A stretch of DNA of 64,000 nucleotides from a virus, in the IMG/VR virus record IMGVR_UViG_3300008267_000004, positions 32,001 to 96,000 of that record, one strand, 5' to 3'. Below, in pieces: positions 11,026-61,897 of the stretch; within the stretch, counting starts at the first letter, position 1, and the number at the start of each line of letters is the position of its first letter. A model generated the notes under the pieces. That model had not been told where the DNA came from and ran no database searches. It was given only the letters and a program-made list of their open reading frames with translations. A program made the translations under genes and the position numbers.

Positions 11026-14000
11026 TTAAGAATATTGTAGATCTATCATTTGTTCTTCTGTCAATTCGATCTTTGGTTTTAGTGCTTTTTTTGCCATTCT
11101 AGCAATATTACAAGAATCTGCTTTGTAGTTAGATTTTACATTTAAAAAGTTAATTGCATTAGTTGTATTTACTGTTTCATTATTTGATGTATCATCAATA
11201 AAATCGTCATACCAACATCCTAATAAATAATACGCTAAACCAAAAGGAGTTGGAGGAATAAAACAGAATGTTAATGCAAGACCCGCAGCTGGTGTTGCGT
11301 AAAATAAACCGTGAGACATGTTAAAACCTATTCTTCTCATGACATCTTCCGCATAAGGTAATCCTTTTAATGCACCTTCTTCATAAATTCTTGGAGGAGG
11401 AGGCTTTAAATCATCAGGACCATATGTTTTTTCTGGTAACATGGGGATCTGATTCATTATAGCAAGAGTGATAGGTCTTGCTATATTATACGGTAGTGAT
11501 GCTAAAAATACGTTAGGATCACCTACTTCACACAAACCTTTTAACATCTGCCATGGTGTTTGTACAGCAAGCCTTAAAATAAGAGGTAGAAGAGATTGCC
11601 ATCCGGCTTCTTGATCTCCAGAATTAGCTGTAGAATTTCCTCCATTTGCTGGAGCGCCACCAAGATCATTATTATTTTTATAGCCATTTCCAGCCATTAA
11701 AGAGTTGTGTCTAGCCTTTAGAGCTGCTTTTGTACTAAAAAATGTTTTCATGCTTTGTAATCTTGCATTGTTAGCCATTATGGCTTGCATTGTAACTACG
11801 CTTATATATTTTCTAATTGGAAAACAGAACTCAAACAAGAATTTAAATGTTATAGATTTTTTAAATTTGCTCTTAGTTACCAATATCTTCTTTGATTTAA
11901 AATATAACTCTAAAGTTTCTCCTTTTGTATCAATCACTCTCCCGCCTGCAACAGGTACTTTGGTTTGAGAGCTGTTTTTTACAACTGTAAATATTTTTTC
12001 AGATGGATCTCTATTTTCAAAAAACTTCAATATATGACCTTGGATATTGTCATAGTTTTCAAATTGTTGTAATTCATATTGTGACTCATATTTTTTTGTT
12101 TCATCTCCATATACAAAAAGTCTTTGCCAAGGAGCTGCATTCTTTTCATTTATTACATTGTTGATTTTTTTTGTTACTCTAGTAGAAATATAAAGTATTT
12201 GCGATTTTATAACTTTTTTAAAAATTTCTTTTTTGGTTCTCGCTGATAGTGTATCGTATCTCTCTCCTGTTTTAATTTCTATTTTTTTAGATTCAGTGGG
12301 ATTTTTCTTATAGAAGTAAGAAACACATTGATCTAAAAATCTTTGATAGTAAATAGGTTCAAAAGATTTCATTTCTATCTCAAAACATCTAGATAAAAAT
12401 TCCAACATTGGATCAGTAGCTACAATACCAATAGGATATTTATCAAATAAGAAAATTCCTTTTAAGAAATAATCATATATATAGACTCTTAAGGTTGCTA
12501 GTAAAAATGCATCAGACATAGCTCTTTCTGTAGGATGCATATTTTCTCTTTTACCTCCAGTTGGATTAGGAGGCTCATTGTTACATGCTTCCTCTCTAAA
12601 ATCGTTAATCACATCTTCGATTATTTCGTCTAAATCCAGGGAATTATTATTAATTCCACAAAATTGATCACTATTTGTTCCTGGTGGCTCTCTTAAAGTT
12701 GCTTGAAACTTTTTAAGATTTGACATATTTTTATAAGGTGTATTTCCAATATTATCAGGCTTCTTATAAAAGAAACTTTGTTTTAAATCATTATATATAT
12801 CAGACATAAATTCACTCTCTATGTCAGAATAATTTATTTCTTTTGGATCTATTTTTCTAATTTGCGTCATATATTTTTCAAAAGCATATTGTTGTATACT
12901 AGAGCTTCCATTATAACCAGCTAGAAGATTATTATTTTTTATATACATCGCAATGTCTGGGCTTATTTCTTCCAAATAAGATGAAGAAATAAATGGATTT
13001 AAATTTTTTGTAATGTTAATGTTGCTTACTTGGGATAAAAATTCACTAGTTCTTGCTCTCTCGGGTGAGATCACAGATCCAAAAGTATATTTTATATCAT
13101 AATTTGGAAAAGCAATATCTGCTGATGCTAATTGCTTTCTAGCGTCTTCTAATTGTGCATCTAAAGTACTAACCTCTGATTGCAAACCACTTATTGCATC
13201 TAAAATTGTTGTCCAAATACCAGAAATAGCTTTAAATGCAAATGATTCTTCAAATAATTTAATATCCCTACTTATACCCTCCGCCAAACTATCTATCCCA
13301 GCAAATAATTCGGTTGTTCCCAGTTTATTTTCAGGAATCAAAAATTCATCTTGTCTTTGAGCATTATCTAAATTTGCTGTAGCTGTTTTTTCTGCCTGTT
13401 TGGCTGCATCTAATCCCTGTTGAGTAGTTTCTGTAATTCCAAATCTCTCGGCAGCACTTTTCGCATTTGGATCACTAGGGTTATTTAAATAATTTTCATA
13501 TGCCGCTCTTTTGTCTATTGCCGCTTTTTTTTCATTTTCAAGAACCACAACTTCTGCTGAGGTTTTTCCTTTTGATTGAATTGTAGATGCGTAAGAGGAA
13601 TCATATGTAGCAACAATTGTATCACCAGAAGTAACAGTATACACAGAATCAGCTCTTTTTGCTACAGCAACACGAGTTCCAGCTGGAGCCGCTCTTGCGG
13701 CTTCTGTTCTAATACTTCTATTTACGGTAGATATCTGTGATACATCTCCTATGCCTACTCTTTGCGCTCCTTGTGTTCTCACAGCACCGGTAATATCAGC
13801 AATAAACACATCTAATAATTCATATATTGCCCATAATCCAGCTAGAAGCGTACTCCACCATCCATCCCAGCCGCCCTTATAACGTTTTTCTAGATCCTGT
13901 AAACCAATCCAAAATCCTGCATCTTCTTCAATAGTGCCAGCGGCCCATTGTTCTAGTAGTGTTATACCTCCGTTTACAAGTTCGGTTGTTATTTGATAAT

Positions 14001-29334: not shown

Positions 29335-29686
29335 CTTTTTCTATCCTTATGCTATCCTCATCAAAATGTTGAGTAGAAAATTCAAATAGTTCTGTATCTT
29401 GTAAAGCAACCATTTGATGTCTTAGGCCCGTTTTTACATGAAAACTATCGCCTTTTTCTAAAATAATAGTATTTGCATTTAAAATATTGTCATCATCCCC
29501 ATAAAAAACTTTTAATTTTCCACTTTGAATATAAAAAACTTCATCTTTTACTTTATGATAATGCCAAGAGCATTTTTTTCCTTTTATAAAATAAAGTAAC
29601 TTACCGCAATATTTGTTATTATTTGTAATCCATTTTTCAAATCCCCATCCTTTGGGAACAAAAATTTGCTCAGAAGAAGTCAACAT
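29327..29686 (-). CDS. Cupin, mannose-6-phosphate isomerase/lyxose isomerase-like
   Basis: VPKGWGFEKW..CSWHYHKVKDE..GLRHQM. Confidence 0.75.
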   Translation of the reverse strand: MLTSSEQIFVPKGWGFEKWITNNNKYCGKLLYFIKGKKCSWHYHKVKDEVFYIQSGKLKVFYGDDDNILNANTIILEKGDSFHVKTGLRHQMVALQDTELFEFSTQHFDEDSIRIEKGD

Positions 29687-44117: not shown

Positions 44118-44406
44118 TGGTGGAGATGCGGGGAGTCGAACCCCGGTCCAAAAATACGTATTCTACAAAATGATACACAGGATTATCTTACAAGATATTA
44201 CAATTTATTACAGTTTAAAACAAAATTGCAACTTTTCTGTTTCGAGGCAAGTTGCCAGCCCAAGAATTACGCAGCTAGGGCGTAGAATTCAGAGTCAACG
44301 TCATCGTTGGCTTTTGTGTTGTTGAACCGTTTATTAAAGTCTGTAGCTGTTCGCAGACTTCCTGCATTTTGTTTTTAGTTACCTTTGTCGAAACCAAGTC
44401 ATCCCC
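44118..44406 (-). ncRNA. ssrA: tmRNA, tag peptide ANDDVDSEFYALAA
   Basis: 5' GGGGATGA..TTCGAC; 3' GGGGTTCGACTCCCCGCATCTCCACCA; pk1 AAGTCTG/CAGACTT with GAAC/GTTC; tag frame GCC AAC GAT...GCT GCG TAA. Confidence 0.95.
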
Positions 44407-55642: not shown

Positions 55643-55865
55643 GTTTTTTTCCCCATTTTTCTGTGGTACAGTTTACCAGTAAGTAGTTAATTGAAAACTA
55701 AAAAGTTTCAAAAAATGACCCGCGATATATTTTTGACCTAGGCGCGTTATTATATGAAAATAGTAATCACGGTAGACATACTTTCCGTATATATACCACC
55801 ATGAGGGTAGGGGGAGGGGAAGTCCCCCTTCTACCCCTAGAAGTTTTTTAGCGATAGCAATAACA

Positions 55866-56249
55866 TTAAAACAGCTGTCGATAGAAGCTCATTGTTTCAT
55901 TTGCTAAGAGTTCACGCTGCTTATCAGGCAAAGTATCCTCAAGCAAACTAACCGTATCCGATGCAGCTGCAAACGTATTAGACCACCGAGCAATCTCGTT
56001 GCTCTGCTCAACAGTATTGCATGGACCGCTGTCGGGATCAGTATAGTCTGCAAAGCGTCTAGCTAGATGTGCAACAGCACGCTGCAAGCTGTAAACATTT
56101 TGATACTCATCGCGATCACTCCACACAGCTGATCGAATGATCGAGGCAGTCTGGTGACAAAAAGTATCACCACTCAAACTCCAATCCTCGTTGAGTCTAA
56201 CCAGCTGAATCTTTGCCGTGTCAAACAAGTGTTGCGCCTTTGCACTCAT
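55866..56249 (-). CDS. Hypothetical protein
   Basis: Start MSAKAQ at 56249 after GGAG RBS. Confidence 0.65.
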   Translation of the reverse strand: MSAKAQHLFDTAKIQLVRLNEDWSLSGDTFCHQTASIIRSAVWSDRDEYQNVYSLQRAVAHLARRFADYTDPDSGPCNTVEQSNEIARWSNTFAAASDTVSLLEDTLPDKQRELLANETMSFYRQLF

Positions 56250-56392
56250 TAGTCCATCTCCTTTGGTTCGCACCGCTTACAGTACCGTGCAACAATACAC
56301 CCACCCAGGTACTGAGTGAGTACCCAGGTGAATCTAGCACAGGTATCACATTGACCCCGCTCCTTGCTATAGCTTATCTGATCATCCCCCAT
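56249..56392 (-). CDS. 47-aa zinc-ribbon microprotein
   Basis: CDTC..CKRC; start and stop overlap both neighbours. Confidence 0.6.
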   Translation of the reverse strand: MGDDQISYSKERGQCDTCARFTWVLTQYLGGCIVARYCKRCEPKEMD

Positions 56393-56463
56393 TACCCTAC
56401 TACCTCCGTGGTAACTCCTACGATCAAAGCAACTACCGCAAACCAGACTGTCAACGCGATCAT
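56392..56463 (-). CDS. 23-aa hydrophobic microprotein
   Basis: MIALTVWFAVVALIVGVTTEVVG; TAATG coupling. Confidence 0.5.
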   Translation of the reverse strand: MIALTVWFAVVALIVGVTTEVVG

Positions 56464-56465
56464 AT

Positions 56466-56567
56466 CTACCCCAGTTCAAAAATGTAAACAACCCAGAACG
56501 CAGCAACCACTACAGCTGCCAAACCAACCGCAGTCAAAGCCTCGATAACAACTTCCTTATTAATCAC
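56466..56567 (-). CDS. 33-aa single-TM microprotein
   Basis: GTG start after GAGGT; ..ALTAVGLAAVVVAAFWVVYIFELG. Confidence 0.5.
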   Translation of the reverse strand: MINKEVVIEALTAVGLAAVVVAAFWVVYIFELG

Positions 56568-56655
56568 GCGGCACCTCGATTGCCTTATAAACCATCTTGC
56601 CAAACGCCCAGCTAACTCCAAGCATCATTGACGCAATCAGTACACCTGCCATCAT
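56560..56655 (-). CDS. 31-aa single-TM microprotein
   Basis: MMAGVLIASMMLGVSWAFGKMVYKAIEVPRD; ATGA coupling. Confidence 0.5.
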   Translation of the reverse strand: MMAGVLIASMMLGVSWAFGKMVYKAIEVPRD

Positions 56656-56786
56656 CGCCTCGCATTCTTATCAAGCATCATATACCAGAGAGCAACGCAA
56701 TCCTTTTCGCTCACCTTGCACTCCTTTTCTGCTACACAGTTTGTTAGGGTTACAACCGCCAAAACGGCGGCTAGCACACGCTTCAT
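56652..56786 (-). CDS. 44-aa putative lipoprotein
   Basis: MKRVLAAVLAVVTLTNC lipobox; AAGGA RBS. Confidence 0.6.
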   Translation of the reverse strand: MKRVLAAVLAVVTLTNCVAEKECKVSEKDCVALWYMMLDKNARR

Positions 56787-56794
56787 TTCCTTAG

Positions 56795-56998
56795 TTACTC
56801 CGAACGCGAAAGGGTATACCAATCAACATAACCCTTCTTGATTTCCCCATATGTCTTGGGGTCCAGCTTACGCAGCGAATGCAGTCGATCACTTGCAATC
56901 GTGCGCTGCTTTGTAAGTTCACGCTCCAGCTCCTCGATGCGAGCAATCGCGTACTTGTGGTCAACCTTCGCCTTTTCTAGCTTCTCATGCTTCGTCAT
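56795..56998 (-). CDS. Small coiled-coil protein
   Basis: Start MTKHEK after GGGAG RBS. Confidence 0.6.
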   Translation of the reverse strand: MTKHEKLEKAKVDHKYAIARIEELERELTKQRTIASDRLHSLRKLDPKTYGEIKKGYVDWYTLSRSE

Positions 56999-56999
56999 T

Positions 57000-57167
57000 T
57001 TACTGCTCCCGATTAAAGGTTTGAATAACTTCCGCCTCGATGCCTTCCTCATACAGATCTGCGATTGTCACTTCACCACTTGTCAAACGCTCATATTGAT
57101 CGTCCGAGAGTGTAACAATGTCCGCACAGATATCCCAAGTGCCGTCACTCAGTGCTACGATTCGCAT
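57000..57167 (-). CDS. Small acidic protein (55 aa)
   Basis: Start MRIVAL after AAGGAG RBS. Confidence 0.6.
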   Translation of the reverse strand: MRIVALSDGTWDICADIVTLSDDQYERLTSGEVTIADLYEEGIEAEVIQTFNREQ

Positions 57168-57189
57168 TACTTTCTCCTTTTTTCCAGTT

Positions 57190-57232
57190 ACCCGTTGCGC
57201 CATGCGGGCGGCTGGAAACCGCCCGAACGGGT
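57190..57232 (-). ncRNA. Two-stem RNA motif, copy A
   Basis: ACCCGTT-CGGGCGG-TTTCCAG-CCGCCCG-CATGGCGC-AACGGGT. Confidence 0.55.
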
Positions 57233-57243
57233 TAGTTTGTTTG

Positions 57244-57621
57244 CTACTTGGTCTTGCGATTAGAAGCAGCAACCTTCTTCTTCTCGCACTCGGCGTTATA
57301 CCGAGCAACCAGAGCATGAGCAGTCTCAACCATCTTTGCATCACCGTTGCCATTAGCAACTGCCGTGATGAAAGCGACCATATCGGCCTTGAGAGAATCC
57401 TTCACCTTAGCCTTAGAAGTCTTAACAACCTCACCAGCAGGGAAGAAACCACCATCGGTTCCCTTAGTCGAAACAATCTGACCCTTATCCTTAGCGGTCT
57501 TAATGTCCTTCTTCGAGAATCCACCGACGTACTCAATCGCACCAACAGGGCAACCACGACCCTCCTTGGCATTGAAAGCACGAACGAACTCAACGATAGA
57601 GGTAGCCATTTTATTTCCCAT
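57244..57621 (-). CDS. Winged-helix-like protein, paralog 1
   Basis: Shares FVRxFNAxExRGCPxGAIEYVGGFSK..K..GxxxSxKGxxGGFF with 59614..60000; wing resembles the Rrf2 SxRGxxGGY motif. Confidence 0.6.
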   Translation of the reverse strand: MGNKMATSIVEFVRAFNAKEGRGCPVGAIEYVGGFSKKDIKTAKDKGQIVSTKGTDGGFFPAGEVVKTSKAKVKDSLKADMVAFITAVANGNGDAKMVETAHALVARYNAECEKKKVAASNRKTK

Positions 57622-57695
57622 TCCTTCTGACGGTCAAACCGTCTTTGAGTGATAGGTTCAAGGGAACCATTCCCTCTCACCAACTTACAGGACAG

Positions 57696-57749
57696 AGTGT
57701 ACCACGACCGGGTTGTGAAGTCCAGTACAAAGAAACACTCACCTTAGAA
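57696..57749 (-). promoter_or_regulatory. Promoter cassette, class B
   Basis: TTCTAA-N7-GTTT box, TGGACT-17-TACACT, TAAGTTG after the start. Confidence 0.6.
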
Positions 57750-57751
57750 CT

Positions 57752-57792
57752 TTCGCTGCGCCTTGGGCGGCTGGATTTCACCGCCAGCGAAC
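57752..57792 (-). ncRNA. Two-stem RNA motif, copy C
   Basis: TTCGCT-GGCGG-TGAAATCCAG-CCGCC-CAAGGCGC-AGCGAA. Confidence 0.55.
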
Positions 57793-57795
57793 CTT

Positions 57796-57972
57796 CTATG
57801 TCTCAGCGTCGAACTTCACTCGACGCATCTCGCGGTGATACATACGCTTGAGGTCGCGGACCCACTTGCGAACCCCGCGCTTTCCGCGAGCAATCGTGTG
57901 ACCATCAATCTTGACGTGAATGGTCCAACGCTCGTTCTTCATTCCCTCGACACCACGCTTGAAATCCTTCAT
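57796..57972 (-). CDS. Small basic protein (58 aa, not in track)
   Basis: MKDFKRGVEGMKNERW..KWVRDLKRMYHREMRR. Confidence 0.65.
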   Translation of the reverse strand: MKDFKRGVEGMKNERWTIHVKIDGHTIARGKRGVRKWVRDLKRMYHREMRRVKFDAET

Positions 57973-57974
57973 TC

Positions 57975-58076
57975 CTACTCCTTGATCTTGAGGTTGATTG
58001 AAAGTCCGAAAACAAATCCCAGCGAGAGGCTGGCAATCCCAATGCAGACCATTTGCACGATAATCATATCTTCCAT
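57975..58076 (-). CDS. 33-aa single-TM microprotein
   Basis: MEDMIIVQMVCIGIASLSLGFVFGLSINLKIKE; AAGGA RBS. Confidence 0.55.
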   Translation of the reverse strand: MEDMIIVQMVCIGIASLSLGFVFGLSINLKIKE

Positions 58077-58089
58077 GCTCTTTCCTTTC

Positions 58090-58473
58090 TTACCGCTTAC
58101 CCATGAGGAAAGCGGTGGTTGCATTGACGTTGCTTGCCTTGATCCGAGTGATACCGTTTGCCTTAGCAGTAACGGCGGCTGACTTCCGCATTTCAGCGGG
58201 GATTCCAGTCTGACGCTCAAGTTCCATACCCAGATACTCATTCCAGATAAGCAACTTGCGAGTCTCGCGGGTATCACCAAGCTCAAAACCCAGAGCGTTG
58301 AGCTTTTCACCCTCACGACGCAGCACGGCATTGTTCTTGCCAATGTGCGACATGATCGCGTTTCGCGTAAGCAGTCGAGCCTTACGCATAGTCTGGATCG
58401 TGTTACGAATCTCATTCACCAGAGTTTCAATCTCGTTCTGCGTCATAGTCTCAACCGTCATTTGATTCCTCAT
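58090..58473 (-). CDS. Hypothetical early protein
   Basis: 127-aa ORF after a promoter cassette and AAGGA RBS. Confidence 0.7.
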   Translation of the reverse strand: MRNQMTVETMTQNEIETLVNEIRNTIQTMRKARLLTRNAIMSHIGKNNAVLRREGEKLNALGFELGDTRETRKLLIWNEYLGMELERQTGIPAEMRKSAAVTAKANGITRIKASNVNATTAFLMGKR

Positions 58474-58520
58474 TCCTTATTGTTGGGAGGGACCATTCCC
58501 TCTCTCAACCTTACCTGCAC

Positions 58521-58595
58521 ATTCTACCACAAGACCCCATGCCTTGGAAGCGACTGTCAGTAAAACCGACCCACTATTAAACTCGACAGTTAGAG
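58521..58595 (-). promoter_or_regulatory. Promoter cassette, class A
   Basis: CTCTAA-N7-GTTT-N4-GTGGGT, ending 43 nt upstream of TG-n-TAGAAT. Confidence 0.7.
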
Positions 58596-58678
58596 CAAAG
58601 ATCCGAGTTTAGTACTATCCCAAGGATAGCGGCGGCTGGGGCCTTTCGTGCATCCACCAGCGCGTCGATGATGTGTGT

Positions 58679-58753
58679 ATATTACACCAAGTCGGTCGAG
58701 AACGGAAGAGACTGAGAGTGAGATTGACCCACTTTAAAACAACATCGTTAGAG
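58679..58753 (-). promoter_or_regulatory. Promoter cassette, class A, with no adjacent ORF
   Basis: Same box, 43 nt upstream of TAATAT. Confidence 0.55.
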
Positions 58754-58771
58754 TTAACTTCTGGACACATG

Positions 58772-58843
58772 GGCGGCGGCGGGCAACCTCTATCCCTAGA
58801 ATATCCAACATTTAACACTTGGGATAGAGTGCCAGCCCCCGCC
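58772..58843. repeat. Long imperfect inverted repeat
   Basis: GGCGG..CTCTATCCC / GGGATAGAG..CCGCC arms. Confidence 0.65.
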
Positions 58844-58880
58844 TCTATTGATAGAACTAACTATCATCGAGGCTCTAGCG

Positions 58881-59117
58881 TTAGAGGAACTCGTTGCTTG
58901 TATCATACCAATCCGCATTGGGATCAGTATCATCTTCCTCTTCCTCGGTATCATCATCGAGGGTTTCCTCGTCCTCGACAATAAACTCGTTTGCGTGTGC
59001 CATATCCGCAACGTCGTCCTCGGACATATACTTGAGGCACGCATTGATTACCGTGTCACGGTCGAGGATTCCATCCTCAATCATCTCCAGAATCGTGTTT
59101 GTTACCTTGCGAGTCAT
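58881..59117 (-). CDS. Small protein with highly acidic C-terminus
   Basis: ..EDEETLDDDTEEEEDDTDPNADW.. Confidence 0.7.
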   Translation of the reverse strand: MTRKVTNTILEMIEDGILDRDTVINACLKYMSEDDVADMAHANEFIVEDEETLDDDTEEEEDDTDPNADWYDTSNEFL

Positions 59118-59329
59118 TATTCATCCCTTTCGTCAACCGTGACGGTTGCAATCTCAATCCTGGACGTATCGTGTCCAAAGTACAACCAAGCAGAATCGCC
59201 GTCGTACTTGTATTCACTCATGTCATACCTGCGCTCGACAAACGCCTTTGCCTTCTCATACGTCGAGAAAAGAGCAACCGTCTGCTCGCCCTGATATGCT
59301 TCAACATCCAAAACCGCGTAAACGTCCAT
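59117..59329 (-). CDS. Hypothetical early protein
   Basis: 70-aa ORF; VALFSTYEKAKAF. Confidence 0.7.
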   Translation of the reverse strand: MDVYAVLDVEAYQGEQTVALFSTYEKAKAFVERRYDMSEYKYDGDSAWLYFGHDTSRIEIATVTVDERDE

Positions 59330-59544
59330 TACCCACGCTCCACATTAAAAGTGTTTGACCAAGGATTCTCGTTTGTCCACTGATCCCAAAGCTGCCGAGT
59401 ATTGAGCAAAACATCGTCGCCATCATTAGCGTCGAGCATCTCGCGAGTAATACCAAGCACCTGCATCTCGTGCGTTTCGCAAAGCACAGCAGATGGAGCA
59501 AAAGTCTTTTCACCACAAGTAGCACAACCGAAAGTCTGCATCAT
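59329..59544 (-). CDS. Small protein with CxxC..C-H motif
   Basis: GCATCG..LCETH; AAGGAG RBS. Confidence 0.65.
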   Translation of the reverse strand: MMQTFGCATCGEKTFAPSAVLCETHEMQVLGITREMLDANDGDDVLLNTRQLWDQWTNENPWSNTFNVERG

Positions 59545-59561
59545 ATCTCCTTTTAAGTATT

Positions 59562-59608
59562 AACCCGTTGCGCCGTGCCGGGGGCTGGTTTGCCCCCGGA
59601 ACCGGGTT
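59562..59608 (-). ncRNA. Two-stem RNA motif, copy B
   Basis: AACCCGGTT-CCGGGGG-CAAACCAG-CCCCCGG-CACGGCGC-AACGGGTT. Confidence 0.55.
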
Positions 59609-59613
59609 ATATG

Positions 59614-60000
59614 CTAGTCGTCCGACTTGCGGCGCTTCGCGTTCTGCGCGTCGTAATCACGCAGAATCGCCTTTGCCTGCTCGACGGTATCCGCATCGAG
59701 CGTCTGACCAACCGACAGCATACGCATAAACGCAGCCATCTGATTCTTAACGGTTGCCTTCACAACCGGACCCTTTGCAACCGGCTTTGCACCAGCAACA
59801 AAGAAACCACCTTCCGAACCCTTGCCGGATTCCAGCTTACCGCTCGACTTTGCGGCCTTAATCTCGGCCTTCGAGAATCCGCCAACATACTCGATTGCAC
59901 CCATCGGGCAACCGCGATTCTCGTTAGCGTTGAACTTCCGAACGAAAGCAACAATCGCCTCCATCTTAGAAGCCGAAACCGTACCATTAGCCTTAGCCAT
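59614..60000 (-). CDS. Winged-helix-like protein, paralog 2
   Basis: Paralog of 57244..57621; GKLESGKGSEGGFF. Confidence 0.6.
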   Translation of the reverse strand: MAKANGTVSASKMEAIVAFVRKFNANENRGCPMGAIEYVGGFSKAEIKAAKSSGKLESGKGSEGGFFVAGAKPVAKGPVVKATVKNQMAAFMRMLSVGQTLDADTVEQAKAILRDYDAQNAKRRKSDD

Positions 60001-60070
60001 TGTCTTTCCTTACTTTCTGCGGGAAACCCGCATTGTTGGAGGCATTATTGCCTCTCAACCTTACCTGCAC

Positions 60071-60124
60071 ATTCTACCACAGCACCGCGCTGCGGTCAAG
60101 AACAAAAAAACACTCTCTTTAGAA
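60071..60124 (-). promoter_or_regulatory. Promoter cassette, class B
   Basis: TTCTAA-N7-GTTT box, TTGACC-17-TAGAAT, TAAGGTTGA leader. Confidence 0.75.
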
Positions 60125-60177
60125 CCTTCTCTTTTGTGTTGACCGCTTCACTTGCAGCGCGTCAACCTTACCAACAC

Positions 60178-60252
60178 ATTCTATCATGGGTCGCGCCGAG
60201 GGTCCAGAGACTAGCTGTGAACCCGACCCACTACTAAACCAGCTCTTTAGAG
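60178..60252 (-). promoter_or_regulatory. Promoter cassette, class A
   Basis: Full box 43 nt upstream of TG-n-TAGAAT; TAAGGTTGA leader. Confidence 0.7.
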
Positions 60253-60276
60253 TAGCTGGGAGTGAACCCACTTTCA

Positions 60277-60468
60277 CTACCGGGGACGGTTCATTGCCCA
60301 CGTATTGTAGAGATTGAAAGCGTCCTCATACTCGCGGACATAGAAAATCCGCATATCCTCAACAAAGAGTTCCATATCGACAGAATCGACAAAGAAATCC
60401 CAACCATTCGCATAGTTGGCCTTTGCGTGACCGAGGATATCATTGTACCAAGTTTCGAGAATCGTCAT
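60277..60468 (-). CDS. Hypothetical early protein (63 aa)
   Basis: Start MTILET after AAGGA RBS. Confidence 0.6.
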   Translation of the reverse strand: MTILETWYNDILGHAKANYANGWDFFVDSVDMELFVEDMRIFYVREYEDAFNLYNTWAMNRPR

Positions 60469-60522
60469 TCTTTCTTCCTTTTGTTTCCCGGTGGGGTCAT
60501 TCCCAACCATCGAACAGGTTCG

Positions 60523-60597
60523 ATTATACCGCAAGACGTGCCAGAACACCAGAGACTGACAGTGTACTCAACCCACTATTAAACTCGGTCTTTAGAA
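60523..60597 (-). promoter_or_regulatory. Promoter cassette, class A
   Basis: TTCTAA-N7-GTTT-N4-GTGGGT, 43 nt upstream of TATAAT. Confidence 0.7.
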
Positions 60598-60771
60598 GCT
60601 GTCACTGTGAGTGTTACCATCTTCACTCCAGATATTCCATGAATAAACAGGACCATCCCAAGTATCATTGTCAAACTTGACAATCCAGCGATCACCAAAA
60701 CCGCTCACAACAATGCCAGTTCCATTGATTCGCGTCGAGATTCGCATTCCGATCTTGATATTGTTTGTCAT
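60592..60771 (-). CDS. Small SH3/KOW-like protein (59 aa, not in track)
   Basis: MTNNIKIGMRISTRINGTGIVV..WIVKFD. Confidence 0.65.
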   Translation of the reverse strand: MTNNIKIGMRISTRINGTGIVVSGFGDRWIVKFDNDTWDGPVYSWNIWSEDGNTHSDSF

Positions 60772-60823
60772 TGTTTTATTCCTTCTTTATTGTGAGGTTC
60801 ATTCCTCATCAACTTATAGACCT

Positions 60824-60897
60824 ATTGTACCAGAACCACAGAAAACCACAAGCGACCAGGAGTGGAATCGACCCACAAAGAAACAACATGGTTAGAG
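60824..60897 (-). promoter_or_regulatory. Promoter cassette, class A
   Basis: Full box 42 nt upstream of TG-n-TACAAT; TAAGTTGA leader. Confidence 0.7.
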
Positions 60898-60948
60898 CAA
60901 AGCGGCACCCACACTACCAGCGAAGCCTCGAGACACCAGGAGTGAAAC

Positions 60949-61098
60949 GGCGGCTGGTTTACTCTATCCGTAGGATATAGGCGGCTGGCTTTGCCCACAC
61001 TCGCCACTCTCAGTAGTTTATCACAGATTCCCCACCCACACCAGCGACCCTGTGTGAAGTGGACAGGGAATCAAACACTACGGATAGAACCAGCCGCC
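60949..61098. repeat. 150-bp element with 21-bp terminal inverted repeats and nested hairpins
   Basis: GGCGGCTGGTT(tact)CTATCCGTAG ... CTACGGATAGAACCAGCCGCC; inner GATTCCC/GGGAATC. Confidence 0.7.
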
Positions 61099-61257
61099 TG
61101 TGTAATCGGTTTGACTGGCAGTGCGTGTGTTTACCTTATTCACCCGCAGCATATCTGTTTGCTGTTGAACACTGTGTAAGGGACTTCACCAACCGTGTTC
61201 TCTGATACTGGGATATCCTAAGTAATCAGTTTCTAGCTATATAGGTAACAGGGTTTA

Positions 61258-61696: not shown

Positions 61697-61897
61697 CCCC
61701 TTTTTATACTGCACCGATAGAGTAGACACTTGCGCCTTATCCTATACCCCCTACTATATCGGTAGGATAGTGGCACCCTATGCGTAGAGCTATACTGGTG
61801 GAATACTACTCCCACATAGCAAATTCATCAGGTTGTATTGACATATCCGAGCAGCCCATATATAACCTAAATACCTTTTTTATGTCATTTTTTTCTA

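Follow-up and report, generated by a model that had tools for sequence, protein, structure and literature searches.

In T4-type phages, promoter-early stem-loops (PeSLs) are rich in G/C tracts, are placed after a stop codon and before an early promoter and mark points of gene exchange; in reporter tests they lowered expression roughly to the extent that a strong terminator does (Arbiol et al., 2010, PMC2839356; Comeau et al., 2014, PMC4122927). These stem-loops have so far been treated as generic terminators and recombination linkers, and the way in which T4-type phages time and insulate their many small early genes is only partly understood. Here we analyse a bulged hairpin that occurs three times (copies c1, c2 and c3) among the early genes of an uncultured, T4-like freshwater phage. 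The window, i.e. the whole stretch of DNA analysed, is 64,000 nucleotides long and corresponds to bases 32001-96000 of the 187,450-bp IMG/VR virus record IMGVR_UViG_3300008267_000004; coordinates refer to the window unless another record is named. A first-pass annotation, made from the letters alone, had noticed the three copies as a covarying RNA motif. Our results indicate that the hairpin is real and uncatalogued, and that it represents a variant, of narrow distribution, of stem-loops already known from the gaps between early genes of T4-type phages. The best explanatory context, which that annotation missed, is one of PeSL-type cassettes in early operons, beside winged-helix genes of a T4-like phage.

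The locus resembles the PeSL loci in several respects. The phage has a T4-type capsid gene and a variable early region rich in small ORFans. Copy c2 is G/C-rich, with a stop codon on one side and, on the other, a strong early promoter of the sigma-70 type that has an A/T-rich upstream region. A promoter lies directly downstream of c2 and of the c2-type copies in three related contigs (L122-L124), and c1 and c3 are followed by a ribosome-binding site (RBS) only. The element is repeated with lineage-specific sequence, and some of the differences in gene content between relatives adjoin the hairpin.

Three bulged hairpins at cistron boundaries

The layout drawn in the first-pass annotation, P1-P2-loop-P2'-bulge-P1', was recovered exactly in all three copies on the minus strand, which is the sense strand of the region. 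Each copy has two stems, a loop ending in CCAG and an 8-nt bulge on the 3' side (CANGGCGC). Copy c1 (57232 to 57190) consists of P1 ACCCGUU, P2 CGGGCGG, loop UUUCCAG, P2' CCGCCCG, bulge CAUGGCGC and P1' AACGGGU, with 7 bp in either stem. The core of c2 (57792 to 57752) reads, in the same order, UUCGCU, GGCGG, UGAAAUCCAG, CCGCC, CAAGGCGC and AGCGAA, which gives a P1 of 6 bp and a P2 of 5 bp; with an outer stem P0 of 4 bp (AGAA/UUCU) this copy spans 57746..57797. Copy c3 (59608 to 59562) reads ACCCG(G)UU, CCGGGGG, CAAACCAG, CCCCCGG, CACGGCGC and AACGGGU, its P1 having 7 bp with one bulged G and its P2 7 bp. The three copies scored 65.9, 48.1 and 52.6 bits, respectively, against a covariance model built from the copies.

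All copies are intergenic, and each starts within about 15 nt of a stop codon, as had been claimed: c1 begins 11 nt past the stop of the gene at 57244-57621, c2 3 nt and c3 5 nt past the respective stops, the latter belonging to the gene at 59614-60000. About 11 nt separate the end of c1 from the AAGGAG of the following gene, and c3 is followed by AAAAGGAG and a start codon, so that the AAGGAG RBS reported for two copies, each with its start codon, stands behind c1 and c3. In c2, P0 overlaps the stop codon of the gene at 57796-57972 as well as the first bases of a promoter-upstream box. This copy is placed between the stop codon and, in turn, the upstream box, a T-rich tract, the -35 element and the extended -10 element of an early promoter.

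Minimum-energy folding formed P1 and P2 and left the bulge unpaired in c1 (z = -3.05) and c3 (z = -3.15); the fold of c2 was weaker (z = -1.6), and part of its bulge has an alternative pairing. The pattern GCGCCNTGN{5,9}CTGG matched three times in the window, against 0.00 expected, and the same three matches were the only ones in the whole genome. Two candidates for a fourth copy, at 61722-61786 and 60184-60236, were not significantly structured (z about -0.9). No GCGCC that could serve as a partner of the bulge was found on the sense strand of the island in which the copies lie. A pseudoknot between the c1 loop UUUCCAG and a CUGGAAA about 3 nt after P1' was considered and rejected; it is available in c1-type copies only, not in c3 or in the related contig L126, and its 3-nt linker is unable to span both helices.

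The lack of a U tract had been noted correctly: none follows c1, c2 or c3 (tails AACUGGAAAAAAGG, AAGUUCUAAGG and UAAUACUUAAAAGG), and a terminator scan did not list any of the three as a terminator. Because the same genome has hairpin-plus-U-run terminators elsewhere, the missing U tract is meaningful. Copies c1 and c3 separate the first cistron of an operon from the rest, 7 and 3 genes, respectively. We found no promoter between either copy and the genes behind it, and both must therefore be read through.

The genes ahead of c1 and c3 encode predicted winged-helix proteins of a family that we call GRGCP after its invariant motif. Gene 1 (57244..57621, minus strand, 125 aa; homologues start at the second ATG, MATS...) has c1 downstream and c2 upstream of its promoter. 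Gene 2 (59614..60000, minus strand, 128 aa), with c3 downstream, is a paralogue 48% identical to gene 1. Gene and hairpin were duplicated together, giving the paralogous copies c1 and c3, which for this reason are not fully independent of each other.

Conservation and covariation in related phages

Relatives yielded 8 further copies, 11 in total. They come from the five JGI/ENA metagenome contigs (L122-L126) to which the reading was confined; about 20 more contigs encode GRGCP homologues. A c1/c3-type copy stood behind the winged-helix gene in 7/7 loci (the window twice, and L122-L126), and a c2-type copy stood upstream of the promoter of that gene in four (the window and L122-L124). No copy among the 11 has a U tract.

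The claim of an invariant loop and an invariant bulge held in part. It is only within this genome that neither CCAG nor the CA of the bulge varies: the loop of L126 is UUCG, and L123 has UG in place of CA. The GGCGC of the bulge is the same in 11/11 copies. In L126 it persists, within an unchanged bulge CACGGCGC, next to an 8-bp P2 (the c3-type P2 plus one U-A pair), and an inserted C there repairs the bulged G of c3.

The stems had been reported to differ in sequence and to stay paired, and both our alignments, relatives included, bore this out through compensatory changes. In a manual alignment of 8 distinct copies, both sides had changed at 5/7 positions of P1 and 3/7 of P2. In a model-based alignment, 7/14 pairs changed on both sides; 83.6% of the cells were paired, against 75% after shuffling, a value reached by 0/500 shuffles, and the covariation score was 0.297, against 0.159 for shuffled and at most 0.108 for slid controls. 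Among the individual changes, an A-U pair in P1 is swapped for U-A in L124, a G-C pair in P2 of the same contig becomes G.U, which pairs on the sense strand only, and P0 covaries between AGAA/UUCU (c2) and AGAG/CUCU (L123, L124).

Within each type the hairpins of the relatives were 95-100% identical, compared with 72-80% for the adjacent gene and 77-82% for the promoter and 5'UTR. Therefore, selection, or exchange, acts on the sequence of the hairpin as well as on its pairing. Contigs from four DNA runs showed no variants within hairpins, in pieces that were short and often ended inside a hairpin.

Gene content varied beside the copies. The window has two extra ORFs, relative to L123 and L124, between the gene for a 127-aa protein and c2, and the number of genes behind c1 differed among L122, L124 and the window. 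Indels also occurred away from the hairpins. A single junction lay inside a copy (L123) and is possibly an amplification chimera. Both L122 and L123, which come from the OGVZ metagenome, carry a GTTTCCCAGTCACGAT-type random-amplification primer at the contig ends, so that chimeric joins are possible in this data set. The broken P1' of L123 was discounted accordingly, its tail being unrelated AT-rich DNA.

More distant GRGCP genes in related phages also have a hairpin directly behind them. In L337 it is a canonical terminator with an 11-bp stem, a GAAA loop and a U tract (z = -4.9), without GGCGC; L336 has a GC-rich double hairpin made from the same words, and in L334 and L335 the hairpin is weak and two-tiered, GGCGC being on its 3' side.

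Searches for known families and wider distribution

The hairpin had been said to match no recognised family, and Rfam 15 agreed: there was no match at gathering scores in the window and none to E = 10 over the hairpins. A first pattern scan of IMG/VR returned chance matches, none of which, among the matches listed, formed the hairpin, and a stricter pattern gave two matches, neither of them a copy. In 185,579 GTDB species genomes the pattern scan found 110 single, chance-type matches and no arrays; two of the 110 folded similarly, both in DNA of 62-73% GC. Since these matches were single and without arrays, we rejected the ideas that the hairpin mimics a CRISPR repeat (an RNA anti-CRISPR) or is a host repeat. 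The covariance model recovered only the 11 known sites in the window and the related loci; it had no match in five related T4-like IMG/VR records. A literature search for two of the sequence words returned primers only.

A 9-nt word shared by hairpins and genome

The CCAG of the loop is the start of a 9-mer, CCAGCCGCC, that recurs across the clade, which further qualifies the first-pass view of this loop as a mark of the hairpin. The exact word is the most over-represented 9-mer of the genome, with 18 copies against 0.15 expected, and its single-mismatch neighbours occur 0-4 times each. The degenerate form CCAGCC(G/C)CC occurs 20 times in the genome and 12 times in the window, where 0.11 are expected (13867, 29718, 39347, 46367, 57207, 57766, 58631, 58832, 59580, 60949, 60980 and 61090). 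In c3, a G within the word has become C together with its partner base. The exact word was found in intergenic and coding DNA, in several reading frames and in both orientations. It was also enriched in 4/5 related IMG/VR records found through their PhoH gene (8, 5, 9 and 4 copies, against 0-1 for a reversed control), all five of which lack the bulged hairpin. In the hairpin of L126 the word is gone. The hairpin borrows the word rather than being defined by it.

Two functions of the 9-mer were considered and rejected: a Mot-box-like promoter element, as no consistent -10 stands at a fixed distance, and a Chi-like site, as the copies point in both directions and concentrate in the island. Together with GGCGC, the word builds several other hairpin types in this phage clade. 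One composite element has two direct copies of the 9-mer around a small A/U-rich hairpin, the stem of which differs in sequence between phages with the pairing kept; it precedes an early promoter, and its conservation extends to three phages (window 60949-60988; G000 122216-122253; G001 13798-13845, L318; G004 29556-29603, L319). A long hairpin, GCGGUUGG...CCAGCCGCCGCAAAU, followed by a U run, occurs outside the window at G000 118870-118930 and in L321 and L326. It is conserved across three phages, with compensatory changes, and resembles a canonical terminator in which the 9-mer is embedded.

GRGCP family, promoters and early-gene island

A structure prediction for GRGCP (pLDDT 80) showed a winged helix with further helices C-terminal to it. 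The best structural matches, all weak, were IscR, Rrf2 and MarR regulators and linker-histone domains, and leads from a protein atlas agreed. The family has 22 close homologues in public data and forms 38 clusters at 50% identity; it is small and lacks annotation. Owing to its constant company with the hairpin, GRGCP is the obvious candidate for a reader of it. The 127-aa protein encoded upstream of c2 has no detectable relationship to GRGCP. A search for RegB (Pfam PF10715) gave no match and is uninformative, because the control gave none either.

Gene 1 is preceded by a sigma-70-type early promoter with an extended -10 element (57696..57724, minus strand; TGGACTTCACAA...TGGTACACT); the GGCGCA of c2 is located 32 nt upstream of its -35 hexamer. 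Upstream of the corresponding promoter of gene 2 (60071..60099, minus strand; TTGACC-17-TGGTAGAAT), a different hairpin occupies the place of c2. An insertion of c2 in the manner of a miniature inverted-repeat transposable element was rejected on this ground, as the paralogous promoter does not have an empty site there.

The three hairpins lie in an early-gene island with sharp borders (55800..61250, minus strand) that has about 50% GC, compared with about 30% in the rest of the window and 34% in the genome. The island also holds 8/20 of the CCAGCCSCC words of the genome. Several sigma-70-type promoters with extended -10 elements drive its genes, and no Pfam or PHROG function could be assigned to its small ORFs. 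We rejected an assembly chimera as its origin, because its promoter type (TTGACTTCACAA...TGGTA) and the 9-mer recur in the AT-rich remainder of the genome.

Other structures were seen in the island, all on the minus strand. At its downstream edge, 55800-55840 contains a G/C-tract hairpin, GGGGUAG...CUACCC, that folds no better than shuffled sequence. A non-coding gap of about 400 nt (58540-58885) contains long GC-rich hairpins (z = -3.5) with arms made from GGCGGCUGG and CCAGCCGCC; similar arms precede UUCUAUCC in L334-L337. A common leader of early transcripts, GUAAGGUUGAGAG, with a short hairpin before the RBS, occurs at 57640-57700, 58480-58530 and 60020-60070, and this leader is also present in L126 and L334-L336. 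At 60104-60206, nothing but a hairpin and a U7 run separates an early promoter (TGGACC-17-TGATAGAAT) from the promoter after it; this unit may specify a short non-coding RNA of about 70 nt.

In the genome as a whole, the minus strand carries nearly all genes. The T4 gp23-type major capsid protein was identified through PF07068 (E = 3e-58). There are tRNAs and a phage-encoded tmRNA (44118-44406, tag ANDDVDSEFYALAA) that adjoins tRNA-Gly and tRNA-Ala.

Discussion

We tentatively favour a reading, possible rather than probable, in which the hairpin is a barrier at the cistron boundary and its bulge is read by a factor, so that it acts as an attenuator or as a protected 3' end. From the fold, conservation, position and strand of the copies we infer that they are transcribed, that they attenuate or stabilise messages and that a protein reads the bulge. 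The copies would form one lineage-specific family of cis-acting hairpins in sense early transcripts, as the stem-loop part of PeSL-like cassettes. In c1 and c3, the hairpin would form directly after the stop of the promoter-proximal winged-helix cistron; c2 would end the unit before it, immediately ahead of the following early promoter. Such a barrier would weaken read-through, provide the upstream message with a protected 3' end, or do both, and would thereby uncouple expression of the first cistron from that of the 3-7 genes behind it. Copy c2 might additionally shield the next promoter. The unpaired GGCGCA, presented on a helix of variable sequence, would be the contact for a putative protein that sets the strength of the barrier.

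The first-pass annotation had proposed a protein- or ligand-binding RNA that acts in antitermination, processing or mRNA stabilisation. Conservation beyond what a plain hairpin needs is consistent with a factor that recognises the hairpin; there is no sign of a ligand. Antitermination, processing and stabilisation would be alternative modes of action.

Several points weigh against this reading. Efficient intrinsic termination at the hairpins is unlikely; with no U tract, the barrier would need a factor or act after transcription. Having no promoter behind them, c1 and c3 are at best 'half' PeSLs. Most of the covariation lies between the three paralogous types, and with near-identity within types there are few independent events. 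Watson-Crick covariation fits a DNA hairpin equally well, and RNA is favoured by a single G.U only. Finally, recombination at the hairpins, instead of purifying selection, could account for their near-identity across diverged relatives.

An operator function, in which the hairpin is bound by the adjacent GRGCP protein, either as RNA or as an inverted repeat in DNA, and controls the operon of that protein, is unlikely, if the first of the alternatives to be reckoned with. Possible effects would be a block of the RBS about 10 nt behind c1 and c3, or a switch from immediate-early to delayed-early read-through. Gene and hairpin keep together in every locus read, copies flank the gene on both sides in four of them, and the predicted winged helix with its weak regulator-like structural matches, in agreement with the atlas lead, would suit the role. 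Conservation falls on the unpaired parts of the hairpin, as would be expected if a protein contacts them. By analogy, T4 gp43 would offer a precedent, since it binds a hairpin operator with a specific loop (PMC3014915), and the cro-nutR layout of lambda may offer another. Winged-helix regulators, however, usually bind symmetric double-stranded sites, whereas the arms differ here and the conserved parts are asymmetric. The gene ahead of c2 is a different one, and what comes after this copy is a promoter, not an RBS; the distant GRGCP relative in L337 has an ordinary terminator without GGCGC. A bolder version, in which the GGCGCA-bulge hairpin is an RNA operator and GRGCP a new family of RNA-binding winged-helix proteins gating read-through or translation of early operons, we regard as doubtful. 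For T4-like phages it would amount to a switch, made of protein and hairpin, between immediate-early and delayed-early genes, with CCAGCCGCC as part of the same recognition vocabulary.

It is improbable that the hairpin is primarily an element of the DNA, that is, a cassette recombination linker as in PeSL-type shuffling or a small selfish repeat, whose identity is kept by exchange; the linker is compatible with the favoured barrier and does not exclude it. The gap between hairpin and flank identity (95-100% vs 72-80%) is what exchange would leave, gene content differs beside the copies (the extra ORFs near c2 and the number of genes behind c1), and the words CCAGCCGCC and GGCGC are reused in other hairpin types of the clade. 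The compensatory changes and the sense-strand G.U speak instead for selection on pairing, the different hairpin at the paralogous promoter leaves no insertion footprint, and the sole apparent breakpoint within a copy, in L123, is possibly a chimera.

A processing site for a host RNase III-type enzyme, with cleavage in the 3' bulge after which P2 would remain as a stabilising hairpin at the 3' end of the upstream message, has a slender chance of being correct. It draws on the two stacked helices with an asymmetric 3'-side interruption, on their place between cistrons of early polycistronic units, on the missing U tract and the required read-through, and on the long GC-rich hairpins, with arms of about 20 bp from the same words, in non-coding gaps of the island. 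RNase III normally measures about two helical turns, but the helices have just 11-16 bp in all, with 11-15 bp for P1 plus P2 and 5-8 bp between bulge and loop, and P0 adds 4 in c2 only. Nor would the enzyme require an invariant GGCGCA.

Very improbable, lastly, is that these are ordinary terminator-like hairpins, alike through recent duplication, in which CCAG and GGCGCA have no function of their own: c1 and c3 do stem from a joint duplication of gene and hairpin, GC-rich hairpins abound in the island and the genome has only three copies, but the stems have diverged at 8/14 pairs with 11 unpaired positions fixed, the reverse of the neutral expectation, c2 lies outside the duplication, GGCGC persists in all 11 copies, including that of L126 with its different loop and P2, and a U tract is missing.

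Comparison with known systems

Like an intrinsic terminator, the hairpin is stable, G/C-rich and placed directly after a stop codon, where L337 indeed has a canonical one; it differs in the consistent absence of a U tract, in its 8-nt bulge and in the need of the genes downstream of c1 and c3 for read-through. The nut site of lambda (boxA/boxB) is likewise a small hairpin right after the first, regulator-encoding gene of an early operon (cro), and in both cases the stems vary and unpaired bases are fixed. In contrast to nut, there is no boxA-like element, GNRA-like pentaloop or known N-like protein here, Rfam finds no match, and c2 precedes a promoter, where antitermination makes no sense.

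The early genes of T7 are separated by the RNase III sites R0.3 to R1.3, of which R1.1 is the model substrate. Those sites share with the present hairpins an irregular shape with a 3'-side interruption, a position between early cistrons and the requirement for read-through; by analogy, a 3' hairpin would remain on the upstream message. The hairpins here have much shorter helices and a one-sided bulge of fixed sequence, and they span less than about two helical turns. As in the gp43 operator of T4, a hairpin with sequence-specific unpaired bases accompanies the gene for a small nucleic-acid-binding protein (predicted in our case), but the operator lies in the 5' leader and overlaps its own RBS, whereas the hairpin described here is 3' of the gene.

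The PeSLs remain the closest system. A two-tier stem with an invariant 8-nt 3' bulge has not been described for them, and the present hairpin further differs in having only three copies per genome, in being tied to one gene family and in lacking a U tract. Should the bulge prove dispensable, the hairpin would be merely another lineage-specific PeSL stem-loop. Its two-tier shape, its invariant bulge, its conservation above that of the neighbouring genes and its tie to a winged-helix gene point to a specific reader. If there is such a reader, protein and hairpin would constitute a compact, transplantable control module, and would give a first handle on the GC-rich early island and on the recurring words of this freshwater clade.

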